From Bacteroidota bacterium (lineage in GTDB: Bacteria > Bacteroidota > Ignavibacteria > UBA10030 > UBA6906): a DNA stretch of 64,000 bases. A program made the translations under genes and the position numbers. Position 1 is the first letter of the stretch, and every line of letters begins with the position of its first letter. Below, in pieces: positions 44,461 through 64,000 of this stretch. The notes beneath the pieces are model-generated. The model searched no databases and had not been told where the DNA came from. It saw only the letters and a program-made list of their open reading frames with translations. Location: NCBI GenBank assembly GCA_030835135.1, contig JAUQWO010000020.1, positions 379 through 64,378 on the forward strand, read 5' to 3'.

Positions 44461-45624
44461 TTACGGCAACTCGGTACCGCGGTTCATGATCCCGATGTAC
44501 TCGCTGTAGCTGAACACCCGGTTGCGCTTGCCGGCGGTGAGTTCCTGCACGATGCCGAGTTGTTGAAGATGAGCGAGCGACTTGTTCACTGTTGCGTGTG
44601 TAAGGCCGGTGCTCCTCACCAGTGAGCTGGCTGTGGCGATCGGGTGTTGCATGAGTGCGTCGTGGATTCGGATCATCGATGCTGCCGGCCGGCCAAGTGG
44701 CGTGATCCTCTCGTGGTCCTTCTTCCGCAGATCCACGAGCTGTTGAGCTGTCTGTACTGCCTGTGTGGCGGTAACGATGACCGCTTCAGCGAAGAAATCG
44801 AGCCATGCTTCCCATTCGCCGGTGAGCCGGATACTATTGAGGAGTTCATAGTACTGACGCCGGTGTGTGTTGAAGTAGAGGCTGAGGTAGAGGAGCGGTT
44901 TGCGCAGCACCTTCTGATCGCACAGCAGCAGCGTAATGAGCAATCGTCCCAGGCGACCATTGCCGTCAAGGAAGGGGTGTATCGTCTCAAACTGCACGTG
45001 GACGAGGGCCGCCTTCAGAAGGACCGGGGATGGTTCCGGTTTGTTGTGCAGGAACAGTTCCAGTGCGTCCATGCATCCGAGGATGTGCTCCGGTGGGGGT
45101 GGAACGAACACTGCATTGCCGGGGCGTGTGCCGCCGATCCAATTCTGGCTCCTGCGGAATTCGCCGGGGGACTGATCTCTTCCACGCCCTTCAGACAGGA
45201 GGACGTTGTGGAGCTCCCGGATAAGGCGGAGTGACAACGGAAAGCCATCGGCCAGAAGCTCCAGTCCGCGGTTGAGAGCTGCGACATATCTGCTCACCTC
45301 CCGAACATCATCCAACGGAACCCCGGGTAGCTGATCCAGTTCGAAGAGCAACAGATCCGACAGCGATGATTGGGTCCCCTCGATCATCGAAGAGAGGACA
45401 GCCTCTTTCCGGACATAGGTGTAGAGGAAGACCGACGAGTCCGGGAGCAGGGTGGAGACACTGTCGAGGCGTCCGAGAGCCAGCATCGCCTCTTCGAATT
45501 TGCGACTCAGTCCCGGTGTCCAGTCGATCGGCGGATGGGGGGGCAATGGTGCGGGGATATAGGCATGGACCGTTTCGCCCGCCGTCGAAGTGGATACATA
45601 TCTGCCCTGGAGACCCCGATTCAT
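44461..45624 (-). CDS. Fic-family protein (class II, autoinhibited) with a C-terminal wHTH
   Basis: The Fic motif is HPFLDGNGRLGRLL. An N-terminal inhibitory SxxxEG motif (SSMIEGT) is present. Confidence 0.85.
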   Translation of the reverse strand: MNRGLQGRYVSTSTAGETVHAYIPAPLPPHPPIDWTPGLSRKFEEAMLALGRLDSVSTLLPDSSVFLYTYVRKEAVLSSMIEGTQSSLSDLLLFELDQLPGVPLDDVREVSRYVAALNRGLELLADGFPLSLRLIRELHNVLLSEGRGRDQSPGEFRRSQNWIGGTRPGNAVFVPPPPEHILGCMDALELFLHNKPEPSPVLLKAALVHVQFETIHPFLDGNGRLGRLLITLLLCDQKVLRKPLLYLSLYFNTHRRQYYELLNSIRLTGEWEAWLDFFAEAVIVTATQAVQTAQQLVDLRKKDHERITPLGRPAASMIRIHDALMQHPIATASSLVRSTGLTHATVNKSLAHLQQLGIVQELTAGKRNRVFSYSEYIGIMNRGTELP

Positions 45625-50342: not shown

Positions 50343-51491
50343 GTGAAACTCTTTCATATTTCGAACACCAACCAGATCGAAGTTATTGATCAAGCTTCGT
50401 ATCGAGATGAATCCGCGGGAGGCTTTGGAGAAGTCACATTGCAGGAACTCATCGCTGACCACCCCGAATTGATACCTGGCGACGACATCAACCCATCGGA
50501 TCCTCCCCGATTCCTTGTGATACGCAGCGAGGCTGGGGTCACGGCGGGGTCAATGGACATTCTGCTCATCGATCACAAGGGTATTCCGACCGTCGTTGAG
50601 ACGAAACTGATCGATAATCGTGAGATCAGACGGAGCGTGCTCGCCCAGGGGGTTGAATACCTGGCACACTTGAAGACTGAATGGAACGCTCAGCGAATGA
50701 TCGATGAAGGGAGAGCATATTGGAGTCATCGCAAAGGAAATCTAGACACCCAGGCAGTTGAGCGGCTTGGAATTGCGCTTGATGGCGACTTCCTTGAGCG
50801 AATAGACAGCAACATAGGGTCGAACAGGATGCGGTTGATCATCGCCTCCGATGAGATCCCGCCTGAGCTCAAGCAGATCATCGAGTTTCTCAACGACGCT
50901 TCTGACTTTGATATTTATGGTATCGAGGTCCAGCTCTTCAGCGGGAAAGATAGCAACCGAAAGATTCTTGCACCTCGACTTGTGGGTTTGACCGAGGCAG
51001 CCCGGGAGCGTAAGAGTTCAAGCACAGGGTCACGATGGACGTATGAACGATTCATTGAAGAGCTTCAGAGAGAATCCTCATCTGAAGCAGTTGCGTTTGC
51101 CGATGAGCTTCTTCGCTTTGGTGAAGAAATCAGTGGGCGTCCGGTAGAATGGGGGAACGGCAAAGACCGGGGATCCTTCACCGCTCGTCTTCTTGCCGGC
51201 GGAGATCGCTTTAGCCTCTTCTCGGTGTACACCACCGGGGGACTCAGCATCAATTTCGGATGGTCCTATCAAAAGTATCCAGATCTGGGGATCGATGTTT
51301 CGGAGAAATACCGTGCGAGGATCAGGAAAGATCTCGGCATCGATTTCGAGCAGTCGAGTTGGGAGCGTGGGTGGCCGATGACGGACCTTCTGCTCTTGGC
51401 GCCACACAAGGACACGCTTTGTCAGATAGTCAGGGACTTTGTGGACGAGTTGAGTTCAACGCCTTCGGATCGTGCTCAAAGGGGTAGATAG
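50343..51491 (+). CDS. NucS/DUF91-like PD-(D/E)xK nuclease-domain protein with an unknown ~250-aa C-terminal domain
   Basis: The N-terminal segment GSMDILLIDHKGIPTVVETKLIDN...QGVEYLAHL matches the NucS / RecB-like pattern G-iDlL..D..G.lvVvElK....QxxxY. This is the first gene of the low-GC island. Confidence 0.5.
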   Translation: MKLFHISNTNQIEVIDQASYRDESAGGFGEVTLQELIADHPELIPGDDINPSDPPRFLVIRSEAGVTAGSMDILLIDHKGIPTVVETKLIDNREIRRSVLAQGVEYLAHLKTEWNAQRMIDEGRAYWSHRKGNLDTQAVERLGIALDGDFLERIDSNIGSNRMRLIIASDEIPPELKQIIEFLNDASDFDIYGIEVQLFSGKDSNRKILAPRLVGLTEAARERKSSSTGSRWTYERFIEELQRESSSEAVAFADELLRFGEEISGRPVEWGNGKDRGSFTARLLAGGDRFSLFSVYTTGGLSINFGWSYQKYPDLGIDVSEKYRARIRKDLGIDFEQSSWERGWPMTDLLLLAPHKDTLCQIVRDFVDELSSTPSDRAQRGR

Positions 51492-51566
51492 TCTACGCCA
51501 GGCGGGGACTATTCTCACAGGAATCTCAATCTGCCGATAGGCTTCTCGACACTTCGGAATGGTGAA

Positions 51567-52412
51567 ATGCCAAGTTCAACGATCAAGATCTTCCTGGTCC
51601 ACGGGGACCCAAAACGGTTGAAGACCGTAGAGCTTTCGAATTGGACGGGCAAAGGCGTTGCCGGTTCCCGTGCGGAACTGACAGAGGTACTCGCCCGTGA
51701 AGAATCGCAGAAGCCCGGAGTGTACGTTCTCACTGGAGTTGATCCCCAAACGGAGAAAGCCGCCATCTACATTGGTGAGGCAGAGAATATTGGAGAACGG
51801 CTTAAGCCCCATCTTGCCAAGGACTATTGGAATCATGTTGCATTTTTTGTGAGCAAAGATGAGAATCTGACAAAGTCGCACATTCGATTTCTTGAAGGGC
51901 GGCTTATCGAAGAAGCGAAGCTTGCCGGTCGCTATTTGTTGAAGAATAATCAGGCGAGCGGAGCGAAACTCCCGGAATGTGACCGGGAGGATATGGAGAC
52001 TTTTCTTGAGAAGATACGCCAGTTGCTTCCCGTACTCGGCATCGAAGCCTTGGTTCCCAGGCCGAATGCGTCAGAAGAGGGAGTCAACAAGGGAAAATTC
52101 TTTTGTGAGATCAAGCACATAAGGGCGACTGGCTATCTGACGCCCAACGGCATCGTCGTGACTGCAAAATCGCAAGCCGTCCTGGCCGATCGGAATTCTA
52201 CCAAGAAGTATCCATGGGCGAAGATTCGACGCGCCAAGCTCATAGAAGAAGGCATTTTGAAAAGTAGAAAGGATCACCTCGTCTTCACACAGGACCATGA
52301 GTTTACGAGTCCAAGCGCTGCTGCATCAGTTATTCATGGTGGACAGGCGAATGGATTGACGGCATGGAAGAATGCGCAGGGGAAAACGTTGAAAAGTCTT
52401 GAATCCAAATAG
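51567..52412 (+). CDS. GIY-YIG nuclease with a C-terminal DUF4357-like domain
   Basis: The GIY-YIG core is PGVYVLTGVDPQTEKAAIYIGEAENIGERLKPH. A C-terminal domain of about 150 aa follows. Confidence 0.6.
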   Translation: MPSSTIKIFLVHGDPKRLKTVELSNWTGKGVAGSRAELTEVLAREESQKPGVYVLTGVDPQTEKAAIYIGEAENIGERLKPHLAKDYWNHVAFFVSKDENLTKSHIRFLEGRLIEEAKLAGRYLLKNNQASGAKLPECDREDMETFLEKIRQLLPVLGIEALVPRPNASEEGVNKGKFFCEIKHIRATGYLTPNGIVVTAKSQAVLADRNSTKKYPWAKIRRAKLIEEGILKSRKDHLVFTQDHEFTSPSAAASVIHGGQANGLTAWKNAQGKTLKSLESK

Positions 52413-52501: not shown

Positions 52502-54823
52502 TTGATGATCATTCTTGATCTTCACATTGAAGAAGAGCTCAGGAACACCCACAAAGATCTCGCCGGCAATGCCAAACTCCATTCTCCTGAAAGGTTAGAC
52601 GCTGCCTACAACACTTTCCGGGATCGGTTCGGACCCGACAAGCTTGCCCTTCTCGACGGGACCGCACTGCTCAATGCAATGCACCTGCACGGCAACAAAG
52701 AAAGCCTTGTATATTGGTTGGAGTTCAAGGATGATGAAGAATTCCCGGGGATCAGTTTCGGTAGTATCGCCGGAGGGAGTGCTCACAAATTCGGGCTCTT
52801 CCGTCGGAGGGAAACTGGGCAATGGGTTACAGGCGCACCTCAGGCCGAGAGGACGCTAACCGAATCTGAAGCAGTTGTTGTTGCACGGAAACATCGTGAC
52901 CAACTTCTTGAAGGTGTTAAGCGTCTAGAAAGGTTCGAAGCCAATGCCGATGATGCTGCCTATGTGCGTCTCCAGCGGGATCTTGACACATCATGCCCCG
53001 ACGTCAGCGGGGTAGCGTGGGGTCACAAGTACTTCTCCATTCTCTTTCCGGACAAGTTGGATGATTATCAGAATCATCGGTGGCAACGATACCATCTTCT
53101 CAGACTACTGCAACTGCCTCCGGAAGCGCAGGGACTCTATGTCTGCGCGGGTCGCTACGTGACCCTCGCCAATCAGTTCGGTTGGCCGATGCAGCATTTG
53201 ACCGCCACATTGAACGCACGTAACGGGCGACCGAAAAGGTATTGGCGCATCGGGACCGCGCTTGGAGGAAAAGAGAGAATTTGGGACGATATGCTGAGGG
53301 GGCAATATATCGCCATTGGATGGGGCGGCTTGCGTGACCTTTCTGAACATGGTAAAGGGGCAGAACTCAAGTCCGCGTTGAGAAAGATGCTGGAGCCATA
53401 TTACCCCGGAGATCAAAAGACCATTTCTCGCAAGGCGGGTGAGATTCGCAATTTTGTATCGGAGATTAGTGTAGAGGAGAACGACATTGTCGTTGCGGCG
53501 GATGGGGGAAAGGTCCTTGGGATAGGGCGGGTAACAGGTCCTTATCGTTATGAAGACACTCCTCCCAAGGGGGCGCCGCATAGAAGGGCGGTCGAATGGC
53601 TTTCAACGGAAGAATGGAAATTGCCAGTTCCAGAGGGGCTGCGGACTACGGTTGCTGTGTTCAAGAAGGATGAGCAGAATATCCTGGAGATTGAGCGGAG
53701 GTTGTTAACTCCTCTCATGGTTACGTCCCCGGGCCCAAAGAATGGGGGAGGAGGTGGTGGTGGTGAGGGGACGCTCCGACTTACTGGGATTCCGGCTCGC
53801 GTGCAGGCGATACTCGAACGGAAAGGGCAGGCAATACTCTACGGTCCTCCAGGCACTGGAAAGACCCACTGGGGAAGAGAGACCGCTCATGATTTTGCAG
53901 CACTTCGTGCCTTTGGCACGACCTTCACTGAACTTGTCGCTGAGCAGAAAACTGAGGTTGTTGGTTCGAGCGCCGTGCCAGGACTCGTAAGATCGTGTAC
54001 ATTTCATCCGAATTACGGATATGAAGATTTCCTTGAAGGGTTTCGCCCGGCAGCGAATTCCTCCGGACAACTTATCTTCAATCCAAAAGACGGGATATTC
54101 AAGCGCATGTGTGCTGATGCCCGCAGGAGGCCCGAGCGATCATTTGTTCTGTTGATCGATGAGATCAATCGAGGGGATATCCCCCGGATCTTCGGTGAGT
54201 TGTTGACCCTGCTGGAATCTGACAAGCGTGGACTCACCGTCAGTCTTCCTGTTTCAGGAGAGGAGTTCGCGGTTCCCCCGAATGTCTATGTGATCGGAAC
54301 CATGAACACGGCAGATCGATCGATAGCTTTGCTGGATACGGCATTGCGCCGACGATTTGGGTTCGTTGAGCTCTTGCCTGATATGACGGTATTCGGAGGT
54401 GCATCCGTGGACGGGAGAATACCGTTGGGTCCATGGTTGGGAGCGTTGAACGACAGGATTCGAGCACAACTTGGACGGGACGGCCGGAACCTTCAGATTG
54501 GCCATGCTTATCTCCTCGAAAAGAAGGAACCTGTCAGTGAGTTGTCAAACTTTGTCCGGATCCTCTCAGAGGACATCATCCCTTTGATCGAGGAATACTG
54601 TTACGAGGACTACGATGCATTAGCCAAGATCATTGGCGGAAAACTGGTTGACATCCCGAAGCAACGGATCAAGGAGGAGCTTTTCGCGCCAACGAGATGG
54701 GATGAACTGGTGCAGGCACTACTCGAGCCAACGCCAGACATATCAACCGGGAAGGAGGCAGCAGCGACTGTCACGATGCCCGATGAGGTGGAAGATGGAG
54801 AACCTGAAGACGAAGAGAAGTGA
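52502..54823 (+). CDS. mcrB: McrB-family GTPase (AAA+) with a long N-terminal region that includes an EVE/PUA-like modified-base reader domain
   Basis: The Walker A motif is ILYGPPGTGKTHW. McrB signatures LLIDEINRGDIPRIFGELLTLLE and VYVIGTMNTADRSIALLDTALRRRF are present. The N-terminal EVE-like segment is RYWRIGT...RIWDDMLRGQYIAIGWGG...IVVAADGGKVLGIGRVTGPYRYED. Confidence 0.85.
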   Translation: MMIILDLHIEEELRNTHKDLAGNAKLHSPERLDAAYNTFRDRFGPDKLALLDGTALLNAMHLHGNKESLVYWLEFKDDEEFPGISFGSIAGGSAHKFGLFRRRETGQWVTGAPQAERTLTESEAVVVARKHRDQLLEGVKRLERFEANADDAAYVRLQRDLDTSCPDVSGVAWGHKYFSILFPDKLDDYQNHRWQRYHLLRLLQLPPEAQGLYVCAGRYVTLANQFGWPMQHLTATLNARNGRPKRYWRIGTALGGKERIWDDMLRGQYIAIGWGGLRDLSEHGKGAELKSALRKMLEPYYPGDQKTISRKAGEIRNFVSEISVEENDIVVAADGGKVLGIGRVTGPYRYEDTPPKGAPHRRAVEWLSTEEWKLPVPEGLRTTVAVFKKDEQNILEIERRLLTPLMVTSPGPKNGGGGGGGEGTLRLTGIPARVQAILERKGQAILYGPPGTGKTHWGRETAHDFAALRAFGTTFTELVAEQKTEVVGSSAVPGLVRSCTFHPNYGYEDFLEGFRPAANSSGQLIFNPKDGIFKRMCADARRRPERSFVLLIDEINRGDIPRIFGELLTLLESDKRGLTVSLPVSGEEFAVPPNVYVIGTMNTADRSIALLDTALRRRFGFVELLPDMTVFGGASVDGRIPLGPWLGALNDRIRAQLGRDGRNLQIGHAYLLEKKEPVSELSNFVRILSEDIIPLIEEYCYEDYDALAKIIGGKLVDIPKQRIKEELFAPTRWDELVQALLEPTPDISTGKEAAATVTMPDEVEDGEPEDEEK

Positions 54824-56127
54824 ACGCCAACAGCATCATACTGAGCGAATGGGAAACGAGAGGTCCTGAAGCTGGCGCCCCCCTTGCCGGATGGCAATTC
54901 AAAGACAGAGCGAGTCATGATCTTGCTGAACGGCTGACCGACCTTGGTTGGATCGAGATCCTCGAATTGGCTCAGGGGATCGAACTCCGCGCAACGTCGT
55001 TCGTTGGCAGGTTCAGCATTGGCGATATGACCATCACGATCCAACCGAAGATTCAGGGAGCGCCATTCCTGAGTTTGCTTCGATACGCGTATGGATTTCG
55101 GCAGCTTAAGCTCCTCAAACCGACAGCATATGGCTCATCCGCGTGGGATCTCTGCGAGTTGCTCGTTCAGCAATTGATCGCGGAAGCACGGGATCTGATA
55201 GGCCGCGGGGTACACAGGGACTATGAGCGAAGGTCAGCTCGCCTATCCGACCTGCGTGGTAGGATCGATTTTGACAAGTACGTCCGAACGGTAGGTACTG
55301 GCGCTGCAGAGGTACCGTGCACGTACTATCCGCGGACTGACGACACCGTTCTCAATCAGGCAATGCTTGCAGGACTTGAGTTCGCCGCTCAACAGACGAT
55401 TGATGTTGACCTTCGATATCAGGTCAATCATCTGGTCAAGGATCTGCGATCGTCGATCTCCCTCATGAGGCTGAGTGGCAGCCTGATCGAAGATGCGAAG
55501 GGTGCGATTGACCGGCGTACTGTCGCATACGGTCCGCTGCTATCTCTGATCGAGCTGCTCTACGCCGGGCACGGGCTTTCGTTGGACGAGGGAAGGAATC
55601 AGATCCAGCTTTCCGGATTTCTGTTCGATATGAACCGCTTCTTTCAGGCCCTGGTGTCACGGTTTCTCCATGAAAACCTGGAAGGCTATGTGATTCACGA
55701 TGAACACAAGATGAAAGGATTCTTTGAATACGAACCGGCGCACAATCCCAGGGGATATTCTAATTCCGATCTCCGGCCCGACTTCGCTGTGATGGATTCC
55801 TCTCGTCTGGTGACCATCGCGGATGCCAAGTACAGAGACCTATGGAATACCCGGTTGCCACAGTCCATGCTGTATCAACTCGCATTGTATGCCATCGCCC
55901 AGGGGAATCACACACGAGAGAGTGTGATCCTGTATCCCACGCTTTCACGGGGCGCACGGGAACAAAAGATCAATGTCCGGGAACCGATCGCAGGTCATCA
56001 TCAAGCACGAGTCATTCTCAGGCCAATCAACCTGATAGATATGGAAGAGCTCATCTATCGGAGTGATCCAGCAGGACAGGTTGAACGCGTCCAAATGGCG
56101 TCTCAGCTTCTATTCGGCGAAGCATAA
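54820..56127 (+). CDS. mcrC: McrC nuclease subunit
   Basis: It overlaps the mcrB stop by 4 nt. The PD-(D/E)xK motif is DFAVMDSSRLVTIADAKYRD, typical of McrC. Confidence 0.8.
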   Translation: MNANSIILSEWETRGPEAGAPLAGWQFKDRASHDLAERLTDLGWIEILELAQGIELRATSFVGRFSIGDMTITIQPKIQGAPFLSLLRYAYGFRQLKLLKPTAYGSSAWDLCELLVQQLIAEARDLIGRGVHRDYERRSARLSDLRGRIDFDKYVRTVGTGAAEVPCTYYPRTDDTVLNQAMLAGLEFAAQQTIDVDLRYQVNHLVKDLRSSISLMRLSGSLIEDAKGAIDRRTVAYGPLLSLIELLYAGHGLSLDEGRNQIQLSGFLFDMNRFFQALVSRFLHENLEGYVIHDEHKMKGFFEYEPAHNPRGYSNSDLRPDFAVMDSSRLVTIADAKYRDLWNTRLPQSMLYQLALYAIAQGNHTRESVILYPTLSRGAREQKINVREPIAGHHQARVILRPINLIDMEELIYRSDPAGQVERVQMASQLLFGEA

Positions 56128-56213
56128 ATTTGCGCATCCCTGGCGGAAATCCGCGTCTCGTTGCGGAGCAGCACAATGTGCAGTAACCTTCTGAGTCATC
56201 GCATCTGATACCT

Positions 56214-56801
56214 ATGCAATCTGATCTTCTTTTGGAGTTTCAAGGTCCGTACTCTTGGTTTGCGGCGGGGCCTGTCGGCTCAATTCTGGATCCTCCTCAG
56301 GGCAAGGGCCATGGAATATACCTGTGGACAGTCCCCACCGCAAGTGGAGAGTTAGTCTACTATGTTGGTGAAACCGGGCGGCAATTTTCTATTCGATTCA
56401 GGGAACACCTGCTGGCCCAACTGTCGGGCATGTATCATGTCCATGACCCAGCAGCTTTCCAGCTTGGAAAGAAATCCATGCTGTGGCCAGGTCTTTGTGA
56501 TAAACACCATCGCGTCGACCTATGCGAGTTTGTTCAAAGGCTGCCTGAATTGGCAGAACCACTCCAGAAATTCGTGAATGTATTTCATTTCTTTATTGCT
56601 GAGATTGACGTAGACAATCGACTTCGCAAACGCATTGAAGGGGCCATAGCCGATCACCTTGTCCGGCAGCCCGGCATCGTGGGTTCATTCCAGGAAGCGG
56701 GAATCAAATATGTTCGCCGCCGCAAAGATGAGCCCTCCGTTCAGATAGGTTTACGTTCATCCAGAGAAAATTGTGGACTCCCAGCGTGTTTGGAGGCATA
56801 G
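56214..56801 (+). CDS. Small GIY-YIG-domain nuclease (195 aa)
   Basis: The GIY-YIG motifs are GIYLWTVPTASGELVYYVGETGRQFSIRFREHL. Confidence 0.5.
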   Translation: MQSDLLLEFQGPYSWFAAGPVGSILDPPQGKGHGIYLWTVPTASGELVYYVGETGRQFSIRFREHLLAQLSGMYHVHDPAAFQLGKKSMLWPGLCDKHHRVDLCEFVQRLPELAEPLQKFVNVFHFFIAEIDVDNRLRKRIEGAIADHLVRQPGIVGSFQEAGIKYVRRRKDEPSVQIGLRSSRENCGLPACLEA

Positions 56802-56981
56802 ACTCCGAGAGATTCCATTGGCCAGGAACCTCGAATTGGCCCCGCGTGAGCGGAGGATTCCTTGAAGACCCGGCGCGGGGTGTTTAACAATGCAATGATC
56901 TATAGGTGGTATCTCCAGGATTTCGATTCTATCGGCAGTTGTGATGCATAGAGCCGACCCTGTCAAGGAAGGGATGGTGCG

Positions 56982-57767
56982 ATGAAGAGCTTTCCATTTG
57001 GGAATCCAATTCTACCGGTTCAACAATCTGACCGGACCCCTAAGAGGGTATTCGTCCTTGGTGTGTACGCGAGTGCCGTTCACGCACGGTGGCTTCGCGC
57101 CGATGGGTCGATTGCCGTACGAGCTCTTGCGGTATCATCGGAGCCAGAGATCTTTTGGAGGGGTGACGGGGAGGATGAGATAATTGCCAGCATTCCGCTT
57201 CCGGAAGGGGCCGGTCGTCTTGTTTCACCCGGGGAAGGGTTGAACGGCCCCTCCGGTCAAACCCTTGATCAGGACTTTCTCCGACCAATGGGTCTGGATC
57301 GTAGTTCCGTATGGCTTTGCGATCTGCTGCCAGAGAGCCGATGCAATCCCAATCAAGCGAATGCCATCAAACGCGAGTACGATTCGATGAAGACGGCCTA
57401 TTCTTTGCCAGACTTTGACTTTCCGCCTCTGCCGAAAGTTCTGGCCGATGAGAATAGAGTACGCGCCATCGAAACGGAACTCGAAGAGGCGGGATCCCGG
57501 ATATTGGTTACTCTCGGCGATCTGCCATTGCAGTGGTTTGCGAGTCGCCATGGTGCTCATTCACGGTTGGCAGACTATGGATCGACCAATGAGTCGTATG
57601 GCCGGCTGCACGAGATTCGAATAGGAGACAAGCAGCTGCTCTTGTTGCCACTCGTCCATCCCCGACAGGCCGGCCAGCTTGGTGGCTACTCGGAAACGTG
57701 GTGGCAGCTCCACCAGCATTGGATGACTGCTGATGCTCCAGCGATTCTGATCAATGTCCCGGCTTGA
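56982..57767 (+). CDS. Hypothetical protein with a degenerate uracil-DNA-glycosylase-superfamily fold (lacks the GEAPG catalytic motif)
   Basis: Three pattern similarities to family-4 UDG were found. WLCDLLPESRCNPNQ resembles NIVKCRPPQNR. ILVTLGDLPLQWF resembles IIVPLGAVAAEFF. LLLLPLVHPRQAG resembles VFPMFHPAYLLRNP. The N-terminal motif is replaced by VFVLGVYAS. Confidence 0.35.
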   Translation: MKSFPFGNPILPVQQSDRTPKRVFVLGVYASAVHARWLRADGSIAVRALAVSSEPEIFWRGDGEDEIIASIPLPEGAGRLVSPGEGLNGPSGQTLDQDFLRPMGLDRSSVWLCDLLPESRCNPNQANAIKREYDSMKTAYSLPDFDFPPLPKVLADENRVRAIETELEEAGSRILVTLGDLPLQWFASRHGAHSRLADYGSTNESYGRLHEIRIGDKQLLLLPLVHPRQAGQLGGYSETWWQLHQHWMTADAPAILINVPA

Positions 57768-57950
57768 ACATATACGGTGTGTTCCCCCGATGTTTGTCCG
57801 CTGTTGACTGACCCCGGGTGAGGGGGGGCGAGTCTTCAACAAGAGAATATGGATGTTGGGTTGTCGCAATCACGGTTTGTTGCCCAGCATGAGGTATGGC
57901 TTGAGTAGTCCTAACACAATGTCAGACACGCTATTGTATAGAGAGATACC

Positions 57951-59570
57951 GTGAACTGGATCGCCGCCTCTGAAAAAGACACCGCTGCCGCAACGCTTGA
58001 AAAGCGCCTGTGGGACGCCGCCGATCAGTTCCGCGCAAACTCGGGGCTCAAGGCCCAGGAGTATTCCGGCCCCATCCTCGGACTGATCTTTCTGCGCTTC
58101 GCCGAGGTACGCTTCGCCGCCCAGCGGACCAAGCTGGAGAAAGCCCGTGCTTCCTCCCGCCGGGGCAGTCGCGTTGATGAGCCCGCCGCCTACCACGCCG
58201 ACAACGTTCTGTATCTGGCCCCTGAGGCGCGCTTCGATTTTCTGCTGACACTGCCAGAGGCGGCCGACATCGGCGGCAAGGTCAACGCTGCCATGCGCGA
58301 GGTAGAGAAGCACAACCCGCAGCTCGCCGGCGTGCTGCCCAAGACCTTCAACCTCTTCACAGGCACCCTGCTCAAAGAGTTGCTGAAGAAGATCTCCGAG
58401 ATCCCGGCCACGCTCGACTTCGACGCCTTCGGCCGTATCTACGAATACTTCCTCGGCGAGTTCGCCATGAGCGAGGGCCAGGGCGGCGGCGAGTTCTACA
58501 CTCCGGCGAGCATCGTGCGGCTCCTGGCGCAGGTGATCGAGCCTTTCCACGGCCGCATCCTCGACCCTGCCTGCGGCTCGGGCGGAATGTTCGTGCAGTC
58601 GGCCCGGTTCGTAGCCGAGCACCACAAGAACCCTACCGCCGAGCTGTCCATCTGCGGGGTCGAGAAGACCGACGAGACCGGTCGCCTCGCCCGCCTGAAC
58701 CTCGCCGTGCACGGGCTTGAGGGCGACATCCGACACGGCGGTAACGTCAACAGCTACTACGACGACCCGCACGCGGCCACCGGCGCCTTCGACTTTGTGC
58801 TCGCCAATCCGCCTTTCAACGTGAACGCGGTGGACAAGGAGCGGCTCAAGGATCTGGTCGGCGTCGGCCGCCGCTACCCCTTTGGTCTGCCGCGCACCGA
58901 TAACGCGAACTTCCTGTGGATCCAGCTCTTCTATTCGGCGCTCAATGCCAGGGGCCGCGCTGGCTTCGTCATGGCCAACTCGGCCTCCGATGCCCGCTCC
59001 ACCGAGCAGGAGTTGCGACAGAAGCTGATCGAGGCGCGGGCGGTGGATGTGATGGTGGCCGTCGGTTCCAACATGTTCTACACCGTCACGCTCCCCTGCA
59101 CACTGTGGTTTCTCGACCGGGGCAAGGCCAAATCGAAGCGCGCGGAGACCGTGCTCTTCATCGACGCCCGCCACATCTACCGGCAGGTGGATCGCGCCCA
59201 CCGCGACTGGACACCCGCGCAGATCGGCTTCATCGCCAACCTGGTGCGCCTCTATCGCGGCGAAGAGCCCGACTTGACCGTGGGCGGGGAGGAGACGGCG
59301 GCCAAGTTGAAGGAGGTGTTCGGCAAGAAGACCGCCTATGCGAACGTCCCCGGCCTGTGTAAGGCAGCAACGATCGCGGAGATCGAGGCGCAGGGCTGGT
59401 CGCTCAACCCCGGCCGTTATGTGGGCGTGGCCCCGGGCGAGGAAGTGAGCGACGAGGACTTCAAGGCGCAGCTCGAGACGCTGAACGAGGAACTGACAAC
59501 CCTGAACGGCCAAGCGCGTGAATTGGAAACCACTATTGCGAAGAACGTCACCGAGATACTGGAAGCATGA
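57951..59570 (+). CDS. hsdM: Type I restriction-modification system methyltransferase subunit (N6-adenine)
   Basis: It has a GTG start and the motif [13 protein letters not shown] (NPPF). The HsdM N-terminal domain is [33 protein letters not shown]. Confidence 0.95.
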
Positions 59571-59703
59571 GCGCCGACCACCTATCCCCGTTGATGCTCT
59601 ACCAGACGCTGTACGGAATTCGAAGCCCGGGGCGAAGCGGATCTTCTAAGTCTGCTCCATGCCGAATTGAGAATACTCCCAAGCGGGAGCGGGAAGGGAA
59701 GAA

Positions 59704-60972
59704 ATGAAGCGGGGTGGAGATTCGAAAGGGATAGCAAAGGCGCATTGGCAACAACGCCGGCTCGGTGATTGCCTGACGCTGATGTCTGGTGGCACGCCCT
59801 CGAAGGCACGCAACGATTACTGGGGTGGGGACATTCCGTGGGTGTCTTGCAAGGACATGAAAGTACATCGCATTCACGACGCCGAAGACCACCTGACGCC
59901 ACTCGGGGCAAAGAACGGTACTCGCCTGGTCCCAGCCAACACCATCCTATTCGTTGTCCGCGGTATGATTCTGGCGCGAGAATTCCCAGTCGCGCTGACG
60001 AAGCGCACGGTGGCGTTCAATCAAGATCTCAAGGCTGCGAGGCCCGCCGATTTCATCGAAACCGAGTTCTTGTTCCATTGGCTGCGCGCCAATACATACG
60101 AAATCCTTGGTCGTGTTGATGAGGCTGGCCACGGAACAACGCGCATCCAAACGGACCGACTGCTGTCATTGCCGATTGCCGTTCCCCCGCTGCTGGTGCA
60201 GCGACGCATCGCGGGCATCTTGTCGGCCTACGACGAGCTGATCGAGAACAGTCAGCGGCGCATCAAGATTCTGGAGGCGATGGTCCGCGCCCTCTACCGC
60301 GAGTGGTTCGTCTACTTCCGCTTCCCCGGCCACGAATCCGTCCCCCGCGTCCCATCGCCGCTTGGCGAGATTCCACAGGGGTGGGAGGTGAGAGCAGTGG
60401 CCCAAGCTTTTGATATTTCCGGTGGAGGCACTCCATCTCGAAAGGAGGAAGCGTTCTGGGTAGGCGGCACCATTCAGTGGTATTCGCCCAGCGACCTGAC
60501 TGGTGCAGGGACGATGTTCATGGATGATTCCAGCGACCACATCACCGAGCGAGGACTTGCACAAAGTTCAGCGCGGATGTTTCCCGCGCGCAGCGTGATG
60601 CTCACGAGCCGTGCCACCATCGGTGCCCTCGCGATCAACACGCATCCGGCTTGCACCAATCAGGGGTTCATTACTTGCCTGCCGAATGAACGCGTACCGC
60701 TTTACTTTCTGTTCCATTGGCTTACGGAAAACGTGCCGACTTTTCAGCGTATGGCTTCCGGTGCCACCTTTAAGGAAATCAGCCGGGGTGTATTCAAGAC
60801 CATCAATTTCCTGCAACCGCCAGATGAACTGGTCCGACGCTTCGAGGTCATGACTGCACCGATAGCCGAACAGATGCTCGCACTCCAACGCCAAATCAAG
60901 AACCTCCGCCGCACTCGCGACCTCCTGCTGCCGCGCCTGCTGTCCGGGCGGATCGCAATTCAGGAGAACTGA
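59704..60972 (+). CDS. hsdS: Type I R-M specificity subunit (two target-recognition domains)
   Basis: The conserved inter-TRD helices are IAGILSAYDELIENSQRRIKILEAMVRALYREWF and, at the C-terminus, LALQRQIKNLRRTRDLLLPRLLSG. Confidence 0.9.
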   Translation: MKRGGDSKGIAKAHWQQRRLGDCLTLMSGGTPSKARNDYWGGDIPWVSCKDMKVHRIHDAEDHLTPLGAKNGTRLVPANTILFVVRGMILAREFPVALTKRTVAFNQDLKAARPADFIETEFLFHWLRANTYEILGRVDEAGHGTTRIQTDRLLSLPIAVPPLLVQRRIAGILSAYDELIENSQRRIKILEAMVRALYREWFVYFRFPGHESVPRVPSPLGEIPQGWEVRAVAQAFDISGGGTPSRKEEAFWVGGTIQWYSPSDLTGAGTMFMDDSSDHITERGLAQSSARMFPARSVMLTSRATIGALAINTHPACTNQGFITCLPNERVPLYFLFHWLTENVPTFQRMASGATFKEISRGVFKTINFLQPPDELVRRFEVMTAPIAEQMLALQRQIKNLRRTRDLLLPRLLSGRIAIQEN

Positions 60973-60975
60973 CCC

Positions 60976-62790
60976 ATGCGGCTCAAAGAAATCGGAATCA
61001 AAAACTTCAGAGGATATCGGGACGAAACCCGCCTCCCGATCGATCCCAACGTTACAGGCATTACGGGAAAGAATGATGCCGGCAAGTCAAGCATTCTGGA
61101 AGCTCTCGATATCTTCTTTGAGGGAGGTGAAGTAACGCTTGACAAAGATGACTTCAATGTCGCCGAGCCTGAAGGTTCAGTAGAGATTAGGTGCGTCTTC
61201 GAGGGACTTCCCGCTGAGATACTCCTTGATGAAACCAACAAGACGACACTGGCAGCCGAACACCTGCTCAATACTGCTGGAGAGTTGGAAATTCTAAAGC
61301 GCTACAAGCGTAGTTCGAAAGAGCCAGCGGTTTTCATTGTCGCTAACCATCCAGCCGCAGGAGATTTTGATGATCTCCACTTGCTGAAGATCAATGAGCT
61401 AAAGAAACGCGGCGAAAAGCTCGGCGTGTCGGCGGACGATATTGCGGATGCACGAAAGAGTGCTTCGTGGCGTCTAGCGATTTGGGCCAAATCCCCAGAC
61501 TTGAACAAGCAGCAGCGCGAGTTGGAAATCAGCAAGTTCGTTGGCGACTCGAAGGACATTCAGGACAAGTTGTTTAAACAGTTGCCCCTCTTCGCCCTGT
61601 TCAAATCTGACCGCGAAAGTAAAGACAACGACCCGCAAGCCAAGAACCCCCTTCAAGCCGCGGTAAAGCAGGCACAAGACGAGCTGCGGGAGGACATCGA
61701 AAAGATACAAAACGAAGTCCAAAAGCGTGTTCTTGAACGGGCGGCCAAGACATTGGAGAAGCTCAAAGACATGGACGCGACACTGGCATCCCAACTCGTG
61801 CCGCGCTTCAGGAAGGCTCCAAGTTGGACGTTCGACTTCGCCTTGGATGGAGAGGACAACATACCAATAAACAAACGCGGCAGCGGCGTCCGGCGGTTAA
61901 TCCTGTTAAATTTCTTCCGCGCTGAGGCTGAACGCAAGGTCACAGACAAAAAGGCCCCCTCTGTAATTTACGCTTTTGAAGAACCCGAGACATCGCAACA
62001 CCCATCTAATCAAGAGATGCTTGTTCGCGCTTTGGTGCAGGTCGGCAAGAGGGATAACTGCCAGGTGCTCGTAACGACCCACGTTCCAGCTCTTGCAGGA
62101 CTCTTGCCTACTGACGGGTTGCGTATAGTTGAGAAGTCGGCGGCGGGTTGCTCAATTGAATATGGCAACGACACCGTGATTGACCGGATTGCGCAGTCGC
62201 TTGGCGTGCTTATAGACCCTCGTGCCAGCCGCGCAAAAGCACTAGTGCTCGTGGAAGGGCCGGGGGATGTCGTGTTCCTGCGTCACACGGCAGAGCAACT
62301 AAAGGCGGGTGGGCACATTCCCGCAACGCTCGAAGAGAAAGGAATCTTACCTGTCTCAATCGGTGGTTGCGGCCTACTGAGGCATTGGATAGCGAAGCGA
62401 ATCGCCGAGCAGTTTAATATCCCGTGGGCACTCCTCCTGGATTCCGATTTGGGGACTTCCGAGGCGGGGCAGAATTTGACACAAGTGCAGCAGGTCCGCG
62501 CCAACGGCAAGAAGGCTTACGTGACGCGTAAACGTGAGCCGGAGAATTATATCCTGCCAGAAGTAGTAACTCCACACTTCGTAGGTGGAGCAACTGCAAC
62601 TTGGACAGACAGCAGCGATGCCAAGAAGGACATAGGCGCTGCTACATCGAAGGGACATGGCGAGGTTCTTGAGTTCTTCTGGACCAAAATGAACGCCGAT
62701 CAAATTCGTCGAGCTGAAACATTCACAGACAGTGGAACAGATCGCTACGAGTTCACAGAGATTCTTACGGACTTGCTCACGTTGGTATAG
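60976..62790 (+). CDS. OLD-family ATP-dependent endonuclease (ABC-like ATPase plus TOPRIM) embedded between hsdS and hsdR
   Basis: The Walker A motif is GITGKNDAGKSSILEAL. The TOPRIM motifs are LVLVEGPGDVVFL and ALLLDSD. Its GC content is lower than that of the flanking hsd genes. Confidence 0.8.
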   Translation: MRLKEIGIKNFRGYRDETRLPIDPNVTGITGKNDAGKSSILEALDIFFEGGEVTLDKDDFNVAEPEGSVEIRCVFEGLPAEILLDETNKTTLAAEHLLNTAGELEILKRYKRSSKEPAVFIVANHPAAGDFDDLHLLKINELKKRGEKLGVSADDIADARKSASWRLAIWAKSPDLNKQQRELEISKFVGDSKDIQDKLFKQLPLFALFKSDRESKDNDPQAKNPLQAAVKQAQDELREDIEKIQNEVQKRVLERAAKTLEKLKDMDATLASQLVPRFRKAPSWTFDFALDGEDNIPINKRGSGVRRLILLNFFRAEAERKVTDKKAPSVIYAFEEPETSQHPSNQEMLVRALVQVGKRDNCQVLVTTHVPALAGLLPTDGLRIVEKSAAGCSIEYGNDTVIDRIAQSLGVLIDPRASRAKALVLVEGPGDVVFLRHTAEQLKAGGHIPATLEEKGILPVSIGGCGLLRHWIAKRIAEQFNIPWALLLDSDLGTSEAGQNLTQVQQVRANGKKAYVTRKREPENYILPEVVTPHFVGGATATWTDSSDAKKDIGAATSKGHGEVLEFFWTKMNADQIRRAETFTDSGTDRYEFTEILTDLLTLV

Positions 62791-62806
62791 TTGACCATGC
62801 CCCACG

Positions 62807-64000
62807 CCTACACCGAAGACCAGCTCATCGAGCAGCCCGCCATCGGTCTGTTTGCCACGCTTGGCTGGCAGACGGTGTCGGCGATGGAGGAGACCTTCGG
62901 CCCCGACGGCACGCTCGGCCGCGAGACCAAGGGCGAGGTGGTGCTGGTAGAGCGCCTGCGCGCTGCGCTTACCACGCTCAATCCCGGACTGCCGCCCGAG
63001 GCAATCCAGACTGCCATCGACGAACTCGTCCGCGACCGCTCGGCCATGAGCCTGGAGGCCGCCAATCGCGAAGTCTACCGACTACTCAAGGACGGTATCC
63101 CGGTTTCCATCCCTGACCGGGAGCATGGTGGACAAAAGACCGAACGCCTGCGCGTGGTGGATTGGGGGCACCCGGAGGAGAACGACTTCCTGCTGGCCAG
63201 CCAGCTCAGCGTGGTGGGCAACCTCTACACCTGCCGGCCCGATCTGGTGGGCTTCGTCAACGGCCTACCCTGGGTGGTCATCGAACTCAAAAAACCTGGT
63301 GTGCCTGCGCGAGCGGCCTTCGATGAGAACCTGACCCATTACAGGAAGGAAATTCCGCAGCTCTTCTGGTTCAACGCCTTCCTCGTCGCCAGCAACGGCA
63401 CCGACAGCCGCGTAGGTTCTCTCACCGCCGACTGGGAACGCTTCTTCGAGTGGAAACGCATTGAGCGCGAGGACGAGCCACGCCGCGTGTCGCTGGAAGT
63501 AATGCTCCGCGGTACCTGCGACCGCGCCCGTCTGCTCGACCTGGTGGAGAACTTCACGCTGTTCTCCGAGCACAAGGCCGGGTTGGTGAAGGTGCTCGGC
63601 CAGAACCACCAGTTCCTCGGCGTCAACAACGCCATCGCCTCCATGCTGGAGGCCCGCAAGCTGGGCCACGGGCGCGGCGGCGTGTTCTGGCAGACCCAGG
63701 GCAGCGGCAAGAGTTTTTCTATGGTGTTCTTCGCGCAGAAGATATTGCGCAAGCTCGCCGGCAACTGGACCTTCGTGGTCGTCACCGATCGGGTGGAGCT
63801 GGACGAGCAGATCGCCAAGACCTTCAAGACCGTGGGCGCGGTGAGTGAGGCCGAGGGCGACCAGTGCCACGCCACCAGCGGGGCGCACCTGCGCGAACTG
63901 TTGCGTGGCAACCACCGCTATGTCTTCACGCTGGTACACAAGTTCCAGACGCCAGAGATGTTGACCGACCGCTCGGACGTGATCGTACTGACCGACGAAG
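62807..64000 (+). CDS. hsdR: Type I restriction enzyme R subunit, 3'-partial (runs off the window)
   Basis: The frame from the ATG at 62807 stays open to position 64000. The HsdR N-terminal nuclease region is WVVIELKKPG and the helicase motif I is FWQTQGSGKSFSMVF. It is absent from the ORF track only because no stop codon falls in the window. Confidence 0.9.

Follow-up and report, generated by a model that had tools for sequence, protein, structure and literature searches.

In the window, a 64,000-nt stretch of DNA from a Bacteroidota contig, hsdM, hsdS, an OLD-family nuclease gene and the 5' part of hsdR make up a single, tightly packed operon on the + strand (Table 1). The HsdM product matches HsdM_N (1.6e-18) and N6_Mtase (3.2e-73) in Pfam and MTase_I (1.8e-234) in PADLOC, and has 80 orthologues at 79-93% identity. 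HsdS matches Methylase_S in two stretches (4.4e-36) and Specificity_I (4.7e-82); in a blastn coverage profile its gene shows two variable target-recognition regions, with conserved parts in the centre (about 60180-60390) and at the C-terminal end (about 60890-60955). The 5' part of hsdR matches HSDR_N (2.8e-44) and SWI2_SNF2 (7.6e-33) in Pfam and hsdR in NCBIfam (3.6e-72), and the nearest solved structure is HsdR of EcoR124I (1e-13), a Type IC enzyme. The operon has the makeup of a Type I restriction-modification (R-M) system: an N6-adenine methyltransferase in HsdM, two target-recognition domains in HsdS, and an HSDR_N nuclease with an SF2 motor in HsdR, as read from the first 401 codons of hsdR, which lie inside the window. 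The McrBC-like pair belongs to the same defence island and lies outside the hsd operon; its NCBIfam matches to McrB (6.5e-41) and McrC (2.3e-19) are both below cut-off.

Table 1. Features of the hsd operon and of the adjoining defence genes, in window coordinates.
Feature	Coordinates	Strand	Description
McrBC-like pair	52502..56127	+	McrB-like, 773 aa, and McrC-like, 435 aa; Pfam AAA_5 and McrBC
hsdM	57951..59570	+	539 aa, GTG start; Type I R-M methyltransferase subunit
hsdM-hsdS spacer	59571..59703	+	133 nt; without counterpart in the orthologues inspected
hsdS	59704..60972	+	422 aa, specificity subunit; Pfam Methylase_S, PADLOC Specificity_I
Left junction of insert	60956..60975	+	New hsdS tail, Shine-Dalgarno-like motif, 3-nt spacer
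OLD-family nuclease gene	60976..62790	+	604 aa, Class-1-like; Pfam AAA_15 and OLD-like_TOPRIM
OLD ATPase domain, ABC-type	60976..62094	+	aa 1-373; AAA_15 match 1-373/374
OLD TOPRIM nuclease core	62233..62448	+	aa 420-491; OLD-like_TOPRIM match
OLD stop to hsdR ATG spacer	62791..62796	+	6 nt, TTGACC; right junction of insert
hsdR 5' part	62797..64000	+	401 codons, open to window end

An earlier note on this DNA had read the same four genes, hsdR open-ended among them, and the Pfam and PADLOC domain matches bear it out. The junction between hsdS and the OLD gene is also as it described, with the OLD ATG 3 nt past the hsdS stop (TGA at 60970-60972, then CCC). The new hsdS tail there ends in …RIAIQEN before the stop and contains an AGGAG Shine-Dalgarno-like motif, 9 nt 5' of the OLD ATG. 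The note went wrong at the other end of the insert, where it put the hsdR ATG at 62807, 16 nt past the OLD stop: no ATG is found there, and the frame from 62807 meets stops. The OLD gene ends with TAG at 62788-62790 and hsdR starts with the ATG at 62797-62799, from which the frame does stay open to the window end. The gene is missing from the list of open reading frames (ORFs), as had been remarked, because the ORF tool skips ORFs that run off the source end. Between hsdM and hsdS lies a spacer holding a 46-codon ORF whose start overlaps the hsdM stop (ATGA); blastn of 59571-59703 against the other loci gave no nucleotide homology, and in the 14 orthologous loci inspected hsdS mostly starts 2-5 nt past the hsdM stop. 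On the + strand inside the operon, no terminator-like or promoter-like site scored above chance.

The OLD gene is foreign in composition. GC content is 0.643 in hsdM, 0.585 in hsdS, 0.525 in the OLD gene and 0.638 in hsdR, with GC3 values of 0.848, 0.676, 0.583 and 0.845, respectively; GC3 is 0.847 in mfd, a core gene elsewhere in the window, and 0.55-0.59 in the McrBC-like pair. The profile across the operon, suggested as a check by the earlier note, thus reveals a real GC3 step (0.58 vs 0.85). That note's picture of three high-GC hsd genes around a lower-GC insert holds for hsdM, hsdR and the OLD gene and fails for hsdS, which is intermediate. A like dip in GC3 is seen in loci L003, L004, L005, L161 and L162.

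We compared the operon with 46 orthologous loci in which hsdM (79-93% identical) and hsdR are both present. In 13 of them hsdS stands alone between hsdM and hsdR, its stop overlapping the hsdR ATG (ATGA); the remaining 33 carry other defence cargo. The window OLD gene occurs in none of the 46, the reverse of the outcome (all orthologues carrying it) that had been named beforehand as contrary to a secondary insertion. By blastn, homology to the insert-free loci is lost after 60955 and picks up again at 62800, and we made alignments of these junctions. Together, the empty sites, the breakpoints and the GC3 step support the proposal that the OLD gene is a secondary insertion. Many unrelated cargo genes fill the same slot across the orthologous operons; in this operon family the junction between hsdS and hsdR is a hotspot for cargo in general. 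Traces of recombination are also present as hsdR 5' stubs, found directly 3' of OLD in L001 (102 aa, 63% identical, E 3e-40) and L004, with another in L117.

The nearest relatives of the window OLD, at 80-90% identity, are found in this slot too. In contigs of P0001, P0010, P0012 and P0013 the gene lies inside hsdM-hsdS-…-hsdR, with the 6-nt OLD-hsdR spacing repeated in those of P0001 and P0010; both L162 and the P0001 contig have an nSTAND3 gene between hsdS and OLD, and the P0005 contigs have just an HsdM_N fragment ahead of OLD. The insertion did not arise in the window genome, for the same hsdS-OLD-hsdR junctions recur in the relatives that are 80-90% identical. Every contig with context in the closest clade (at least 80% identity) has the gene in or beside hsd genes. 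Among 75 genomes with more distant homologues, HsdS is the upstream neighbour by Pfam in at least 15; in most of these the hsdS-OLD spacer is -4 to +17 nt, and the arrangement spans two or more different Type I families. Roughly 75-80% of the family's genome loci have no hsd neighbour, and 360 plasmid records carry a solo gene 46% identical to the window OLD, of which copies H3-H5 are IS-disrupted. Across phyla, family members are 48-90% identical, a degree of conservation that indicates purifying selection.

In Pfam, the OLD protein matches AAA_15 at E 4.8e-70 and OLD-like_TOPRIM at E 1.3e-7. The Walker A and TOPRIM motifs picked out by the earlier note are there (G28ITGKNDAGKSS, LVE427GPGD431 and LLD489SD491). 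In an alignment of 25 family sequences the invariant positions include K37 (Walker A), H125 (Q-loop), E335 (Walker B), H342 (D-loop) and H369 (H-loop) of the ATPase, E427, D431 and D489-x-D491 of the TOPRIM core, and E521-x-E523 of a conserved C-terminal helical part, which runs 3' of the core to 62787 and also holds K550. The five ATPase residues correspond to K34, H140, E276, H283 and H310 of TsOLD, H125 by motif position only; E427 and D431 pair with TsOLD E377 and D381 in the alignment, and the remaining TOPRIM residues can be matched to TsOLD by motif position. In TsOLD, mutating residues matched by this invariant set abolishes ATPase or nuclease activity (PMC7049728). The window protein is full length with all ATPase and TOPRIM catalytic residues kept; a lack of the latter would have counted against the earlier reading.

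The closest relative of the protein in both sequence and predicted fold is TsOLD, the Class 1 OLD of Thermus scotoductus, and we describe it as a Class-1-like OLD. TsOLD (6p74) is the best PDB match by phmmer (2.1e-14), and a Foldseek search with the AF2 model (pLDDT 81.9) ranked it first (3.9e-18), by a small margin over GajA, with retron-Eco8 OLD third. The two proteins are nonetheless distant: 17% identical over the Foldseek alignment, with a whole-chain TM-score of 0.33 and 604 aa against 528 in the deposited 6p74 chain. Identity to any characterised OLD is low; the homologues found are up to 90% identical. Like P2 Old, TsOLD, V. cholerae OLD and E. coli YbjD/OldB, the window OLD has no helicase, RT or AriB partner; its adjoining genes are hsdS and hsdR only, and the operon holds no helicase or RT ORF. 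Class 1 OLD genes are described as isolated and not near other defence genes (PMC10568477), whereas this one lies within a Type I operon in a defence island, with the McrBC-like pair adjoining.

It is already established, through prrC, the rlo genes, TgvAB and a guilt-by-embedding survey, that Type I R-M operons can harbour embedded defence genes. EcoprrI, a Type IC system, has the gene order hsdM-hsdS-prrC-hsdR. PrrC shares with the window OLD the hsdS-hsdR slot and an architecture in which an N-terminal ATPase domain of the ABC type is joined to a nuclease effector, and the HsdR nearest to that of the window operon among solved structures is likewise Type IC. The effectors differ, an anticodon nuclease domain in PrrC and a TOPRIM domain in OLD, and so do the distributions: prrC, embedded in the EcoprrI locus, is nearly confined to Type I loci (Payne et al.), whereas the window OLD family is mostly outside them. 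Silencing by the R-M complex, which marks PrrC-type guardians, is for the window OLD a hypothesis. TgvAB (V. cholerae VPI-2), the Rlo genes (C. jejuni) and the ATPase-TOPRIM candidates HEC-01 and HEC-04 are further defence genes that, as OLD does here, interrupt a multi-gene immune operon. An ABC ATPase with TOPRIM is a recurrent embedded architecture, HEC-04 was found in Hma systems, and the TOPRIM proteins RloB and Mad4 go with Type I R-M-like systems; in RloA/RloB and Mad3/Mad4 the two parts lie on separate genes, whereas in the window OLD they are fused. No HEC model is among the best 25 of 120 PADLOC matches for the window operon, and the literature that we consulted does not name the window OLD clade.

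We think it probable, on balance, that the gene encodes an autonomous second-line OLD nuclease, co-expressed with the R-M system as cargo in the hsdS-hsdR junction. The 3-nt and 6-nt spacers, the AGGAG motif and the lack of a terminator between the genes suggest that all four are co-transcribed, with OLD and hsdR each translationally coupled to the preceding gene. OLD would then be made whenever the R-M system is made. The cargo enzyme, an ABC-type ATPase sensor or regulator fused to a metal-dependent TOPRIM nuclease, would stay latent until a phage cue, for which anti-restriction proteins, anti-RecBCD proteins and aberrant DNA are candidates, switched on the ATPase-controlled nuclease. Once active, it might nick DNA, on the model of V. 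cholerae OLD, or cut tRNA, on the model of P2 Old and PARIS AriB, so that infection stops. Such abortive infection is presumed from the family: the Class 1 OLD of V. cholerae is a DNA-nicking enzyme that protects against phage (PMC12392090), P2 Old cuts tRNA (PMC12445682) and E. coli YbjD has anti-phage phenotypes (PMC13261556). Class 1 OLDs differ mutually, in DNA nicking vs tRNA cleavage and in that the TOPRIM domain is dispensable in YbjD. The cargo probably reached this slot by recombination via the 3' end of hsdS and the 5' end of hsdR, both of which are conserved, and later cassettes could be added likewise. Occurrence of the protein family as a solo gene, too, counts for autonomy. Since every closest-clade contig with context places the gene within or next to hsd genes, a functional tie to the R-M system fits at least as well as plain autonomy.

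GajA (a Class 2 OLD) and PARIS AriA/AriB (Class 4) belong to the same ATPase-TOPRIM superfamily, and GajA and AriA are detectable here by sequence or profile, GajA also by structure. [quoted passage not shown] We consider this highly improbable, and the evidence has largely refuted it. The AriA match spans aa 1-373 only, an extent equal to that of the generic Pfam AAA_15, and the two may be the same model. No DUF4435/AriB domain is found at E<=0.01, the match of the C-terminal domain being to OLD-like_TOPRIM, and the top 50 Foldseek matches, headed by TsOLD, contain no AriA entry. Gabija was rejected because the downstream gene is hsdR, with no adjacent UvrD-like helicase (GajB), and a UvrD-type helicase is absent from the 25 commonest Pfam families of the downstream neighbours of 75 homologues. 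MADS was rejected on NCBIfam MAD2 (38.8 bits vs a cut-off of 720), and the PADLOC mad2, mad3 and mad5 matches are far weaker than those to the Type I models. GajA and AriA score below TsOLD, and the earlier assignment to a 'Gabija/PARIS/OLD type' can be narrowed to OLD, of the Class-1-like kind, with Gabija and PARIS dropped for want of their defining partner genes. PrrC or RloC anticodon nuclease homology appears neither in the Pfam matches nor in the best 25 of 120 PADLOC matches.

If OLD were instead tied to HsdMS(R) as PrrC is, the intact restriction complex would silence it, and a phage anti-restriction protein of the Ocr, Stp or ArdA type would, by disabling the complex, free the TOPRIM nuclease for abortive infection. 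The slot held by prrC in EcoprrI, the Type IC character of the nearest solved HsdR (EcoR124I), tight coupling to hsdS in at least two different Type I families and the hsd-embedded position of all closest relatives with context are consistent with this idea, and related systems respond to such cues, the ABC-ATPase/TOPRIM systems PARIS and Gabija to Ocr and PrrC to Stp (Payne et al.). We still hold it to be unlikely. Most family members, the 360 plasmid copies included, are without an hsd neighbour, and an R-M partner is therefore not generally needed; the many unrelated genes in the same slot of orthologous operons argue for a passive hotspot, and nSTAND3 parts hsdS from OLD in the P0001 contig and L162. 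It likewise seems rather doubtful that the OLD clade as such is a true Type I guardian, the TOPRIM counterpart of PrrC monitoring HsdMS(R). Were that so, its repeated capture behind hsdS in unrelated Type I families would reflect function and not a passive hotspot. A related and similarly doubtful idea is that the hsdS-3'/hsdR-5' junction serves as a cassette site driven by recombination, at which defence genes pile up and hsdR 5' stubs are left over. The hotspot with its alternative cargoes also fits a selfish, addiction-type or decaying passenger without defence benefit to the host, or one that might instead stabilise the island by post-segregational killing; the foreign composition, the degenerate P0005 context and the IS-disrupted plasmid copies point the same way. 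This we regard as quite improbable, for the window OLD is full length with every catalytic residue intact, conservation across phyla indicates purifying selection, and characterised Class 1 OLDs are anti-phage.

Defence operons that enclose a further defence gene are already known, which makes this a clear yet ordinary case, and with OLD nucleases established it leaves current concepts unchanged. The window locus illustrates layered immunity in a clean natural setting with well-defined bounds, in which the empty site, the filled site and alternative fillings all occur in one orthologous operon family, with breakpoints known to a few nt. It shows that a conserved Class-1-like OLD clade is not always 'isolated' and has repeatedly been wired into Type I R-M operons, and it offers a tractable system for the trigger of a solo OLD enzyme and for the sensing of restriction inhibition.

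Four closely spaced genes fill 57951-64000 on the forward strand of the window: hsdM, hsdS, the OLD-family ATPase/TOPRIM gene (OLD) and the 5' part of hsdR, a gene truncated by the window end. Among solved structures, HsdR is closest to EcoR124I, a Type IC enzyme, though the match is distant (1e-13). The earlier note read the OLD motifs and the 3-nt hsdS-OLD spacer correctly. It misplaced the hsdR start at 62807, 16 nt past the OLD stop: there is no ATG at that position and reading from it meets stops, while an ATG lies at 62797, 6 nt after the TAG at 62788-62790. As it also remarked, hsdR does not appear in ORF lists; these leave out any ORF that continues past the end of its source. From the spacing and the lack of terminator-like sites, we infer that OLD is probably transcribed with hsdMSR and translationally coupled to the gene before it. 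A scan of 56000-64000 found no promoters or terminators above shuffled expectation, a result that does no more than fail to contradict an operon.

Features of the window and of the comparison loci (L-numbers) discussed in the text
Feature	Position	Strand	GC	GC3	Remarks
Fic/DOC-family protein	44461-45624	-			C-terminal HTH
Low-GC ORFs left of McrBC-like pair	50343-52412	+			orf382 (no family); DUF4357 protein, 51567-52412
McrBC-like pair	52502-56127	+		0.55-0.59	upstream, a few genes from the operon; GC3 unlike host
Low-GC ORFs right of McrBC-like pair	56214-57767	+			orf195 (no family); sub-threshold UDG-like ORF, 56982-57767
hsdM	57951-59570	+	0.643	0.848	HsdM_N and N6_Mtase (Pfam); Type I R-M by Pfam, PADLOC and NCBIfam
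hsdM-hsdS spacer	59571-59703				133 nt
hsdS	59704-60972	+	0.585	0.676	Methylase_S, two stretches (Pfam); Type I R-M by Pfam, PADLOC and NCBIfam
OLD, 604 codons	60976-62790	+	0.525	0.583	AAA_15, residues 1-373 (4.8e-70); OLD-like_TOPRIM, residues 420-491 (1.3e-7)
hsdR, 401 codons, open at window end	62797-64000	+	0.638	0.845	HSDR_N (2.8e-44); SWI2_SNF2 (7.6e-33); Type I R-M by Pfam, PADLOC and NCBIfam
299-301-codon gene	L161:9812-10717; L162:9818-10717				between OLD and hsdR; no Pfam family
nSTAND3 NTPase gene	L162:5628-7970			0.49	about 780 aa; between hsdS and OLD
hsdR 5' stub	L004:11816-11866				about 50 nt; directly after OLD
hsdR 5' stub	L001:1997-2356				102 codons, 63% identical, E 3e-40; directly after OLD
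hsdR 5' stub	L117:15074-15190				in cargo region upstream of complete hsdR

A metagenome scan with HsdM yielded 80 orthologous loci (HsdM 79-93% identical), 46 of which hold both hsdM and hsdR (hsdR 74-93% identical); these 46 scored best among 508 candidates and do not form an unbiased sample. In 13 of them the hsdM-to-hsdR distance, 1175-1313 nt, accommodates hsdS alone, with the stop of hsdS and the start of hsdR overlapping in TCATGA. The other 33 have 1.9-8.9 kb between hsdM and hsdR, filled by other genes: Schlafen/AlbA_2-HATPase_c_4 proteins, DUF1016/YhcG PDDEXK nucleases, AAA_13 and AAA_15/AAA_21 ATPases, GmrSD, Fic, DarT with Macro, and PIN. This cargo is typical defence material. The window OLD is absent from all 46 loci; one has a different OLD-TOPRIM protein.

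Window DNA is homologous to these loci in hsdM, in the centre of hsdS (about 60180-60390) and in its C-terminal region (about 60890-60955). Nucleotide comparison (junction alignments A5 and A6) places the left breakpoint at 60955, which is 17 nt short of the hsdS stop, and finds homology again from 62800, 3 nt inside hsdR. Along with OLD, the inserted segment introduces six new codons as the tail of hsdS, a 6-nt spacer and a fresh start codon for hsdR; an AGGAG motif in the new tail lies 9 nt ahead of the OLD ATG. These breakpoints, with the absence of OLD from the orthologous loci, support the earlier note's proposal of a secondary insertion into the R-M operon. That this was an insertion rather than a deletion is probable from composition, from the simplicity of the empty site with its ATGA coupling and from the diversity of fillings. 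Since hsdR has lost its ancestral ATGA coupling to hsdS, its translation would now hinge on read-through of OLD. Elsewhere in the operon, the 133-nt hsdM-hsdS spacer holds a 46-codon ORF that starts with an ATGA overlapping the hsdM stop, in a frame different from that of hsdS; hsdS begins 2-5 nt past the end of hsdM in most of 14 orthologous loci examined for this. An exchange of target-recognition domains may have left the spacer behind as a scar.

Profiling bore out the claimed drop in GC from hsdM and hsdR to OLD (table). Since hsdM and hsdR have the GC3 of the core gene mfd of the same window (0.847) and OLD is lower, the former look native and OLD foreign. Upstream, at about 50.3-57.8 kb, lies another block of low GC3 (0.48-0.59), with the McrBC-like pair, a DUF4357 protein, an ORF weakly similar to UDG and ORFs of no known family; the operon thus stands on the margin of a composite defence island. 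At 773 aa the McrB-like protein is long; it has an AAA_5 GTPase-type domain at aa 445-620 and an N-terminal region (aa about 246-395) that matches the PADLOC candidate family PDC-S02; the McrC-like ORF overlaps it by 4 nt. DNA upstream of 57945 is shared with none of the 80 orthologous loci, so the hsd operon has different surroundings in each genome. A tRNA scan found no tRNA genes in the whole window, and hence no tRNA-linked island boundary. Further left, a Fic/DOC-family protein stands in otherwise housekeeping surroundings; Fic proteins also occur as cargo in the orthologous hsd slot.

The presence of OLD in the hsdS-hsdR slot is no one-off. Exact-sequence look-up recovered the contigs of its closest protein relatives, and one of these (P0010, OLD 82% identical) has the window's order, hsdM-hsdS-OLD-(6 nt)-hsdR. 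Others read hsdS-nSTAND3-OLD-(6 nt)-hsdR (P0001, 90%), hsdM-hsdS-OLD-orf301-hsdR (P0013, 81%) and hsdM-RhuM-hsdS-nSTAND3-OLD-orf299-hsdR (P0012, 80%), and in P0005 (86%) an HsdM_N fragment precedes OLD. The comparison loci L161 and L162 have HsdM 80-83% and HsdR 86.5% identical to those of the window, and show the same GC3 dip; their full-length HsdR has about 1,050 aa. The nSTAND3 gene, found in L162 and on the P0001 contig, is a second cargo layer in the same slot. The 299-301-codon genes of L161 and L162 are 94% identical to each other and absent from the window; the L161 copy overlaps the OLD stop by 4 nt.

Two loci, L004 (Verrucomicrobiota, OLD 86%) and L001 (Nitrospira, OLD 76%), have the order OLD, hsdR 5' stub, unrelated genes, complete hsdR. 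A third stub lies in L117. Sought as a general signature of cassette stacking, stubs were detected by tblastn in two of 56 loci in all, and one more by DNA comparison; they are real but rare. They are what is expected if cassettes recombine into hsdR 5' and hsdS 3' ends, and the sequences suggest that cassettes may be added in this way, in the conserved ends of these genes, and then stack.

A search with OLD gave >7,000 matches in a large protein collection, with full-length relatives (48-90% identical) in Nitrospirota, Verrucomicrobiota, Cyanobacteria, Bacteroidota, Gammaproteobacteria and Firmicutes; an exact look-up found no identical sequence. In a 25-sequence alignment (A1), the invariant residues include, in the ATPase part, Walker A G31, G36 and K37, H125-P126, R301-G-S-G304, E335-E336, H342 and H369, and, in the C-terminal part, E427-G428, D431, D489, D491, E521, E523 and K550. 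The TOPRIM residues E427, D431, D489 and D491 are thus retained on alignment, as the motifs in the earlier note implied. HMMER alignment to the Class 1 OLD of Thermus scotoductus (TsOLD, PDB 6p74) pairs K37, E335, H342, H369, E427 and D431 with TsOLD K34, E276, H283, H310, E377 and D381, which are Walker A, Walker B, D-loop, H-loop and metal-ligand residues whose mutation abolishes or strongly reduces activity (PMC7049728). The best PDB matches of an AlphaFold2 model built from A1 (mean pLDDT 81.9) are TsOLD (3.9e-18), then GajA, then the retron-Eco8 OLD; AriA is not among the top 50. Over the whole chain the TM-scores are low (about 0.33), which fits a flexible multi-domain protein. The top PADLOC match, 'AriA', spans the ATPase part alone, which is the extent of a generic AAA_15 model; no DUF4435/AriB domain was detected in the protein, and no NCBIfam model reaches its cut-off. 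Gabija, PARIS and MADS, raised by PADLOC matches, were rejected, as partner genes or domains are missing and scores are sub-threshold. Residues, fold and the lack of a Gabija, retron or PARIS partner therefore identify an OLD-family enzyme closest to Class 1; of the Gabija/PARIS/OLD assignment first offered, the OLD part stands and the other two fall. At the level of sequence, the gene is shown to encode a predicted complete ATPase-TOPRIM enzyme with no partner gene.

We surveyed neighbours in 80 species-representative genomes with OLD homologues 40-86% identical. HsdS lies upstream in 15 of 75 by Pfam and in at least 17 by junction inspection, with spacers mostly of -4 to +17 nt; ORFs in related loci were called by a simple greedy procedure, so these counts are lower bounds. 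In the remaining three-quarters OLD is solo or beside other defence genes. A Pseudomonas/gammaproteobacterial subclade (L029, L030, L032, L035, L037, L042, L045, L046, L050, L058 and L066; OLD start near 10001 in most) has OLD behind the hsdS of another Type I family, in several loci with the order hsdR-hsdM-hsdS-OLD. The junction TAG-ATAAGGAAATCCCC-ATG is common to most of them, and the hsdS recognition domains vary. A solo homologue, 46% identical and annotated 'AAA family ATPase', occurs in 360 plasmid records, mostly conjugative enterobacterial (for example L166, NZ_CP023347.1, and L167, NZ_CP083738.1); a small resolvase-type recombinase gene sometimes precedes it and ISVsa5 sometimes interrupts it. 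The phage collection holds almost no relatives (three records, the best a 64%-coverage fragment), and a prophage origin is therefore not supported.

Enzymes of the OLD family are ATP-regulated nucleases that form a second line of defence, often an abortive one. In P2 Old, inhibition of RecBCD is the cue and the anticodon arms of tRNA are cut (PMC12445682), and V. cholerae OLD nicks DNA (PMC12392090); the anti-restriction protein Ocr triggers PARIS and Gabija, and Stp is the trigger of PrrC (Payne et al.). What is known of these families leads us to favour a model in which OLD is probably an autonomous back-up nuclease, co-expressed with the restriction enzyme, that would act against phages able to escape or block restriction. 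On a sharper alternative, OLD would be a guardian like PrrC, under the physical control of HsdMS(R). In its favour are the slot, identical to that of PrrC, the recurrent linkage to hsdS and the position of the closest OLD clade, consistently within or beside hsd genes; against it are the many solo copies of OLD and the promiscuity of the hsdS-hsdR slot, and we regard this alternative as rather unlikely.

Embedding of defence genes in Type I R-M operons is already well documented: prrC resides in the EcoprrI locus, TgvAB in V. cholerae VPI-2, and the rlo genes in C. jejuni Type I loci. RloB and Mad4, which belong to Type I-like systems, are TOPRIM proteins. A systematic 'guilt-by-embedding' survey of BREX, DISARM and Type I systems lists embedded genes in the thousands, with ABC-ATPase/TOPRIM architectures common among them (Payne et al.). 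Reviews describe Class 1 OLD genes as isolated, away from other defence genes (PMC10568477), whereas the window clade often lies behind hsdS. What is slightly unusual here is that a conserved, Class-1-like OLD clade is often hard-wired in that position.
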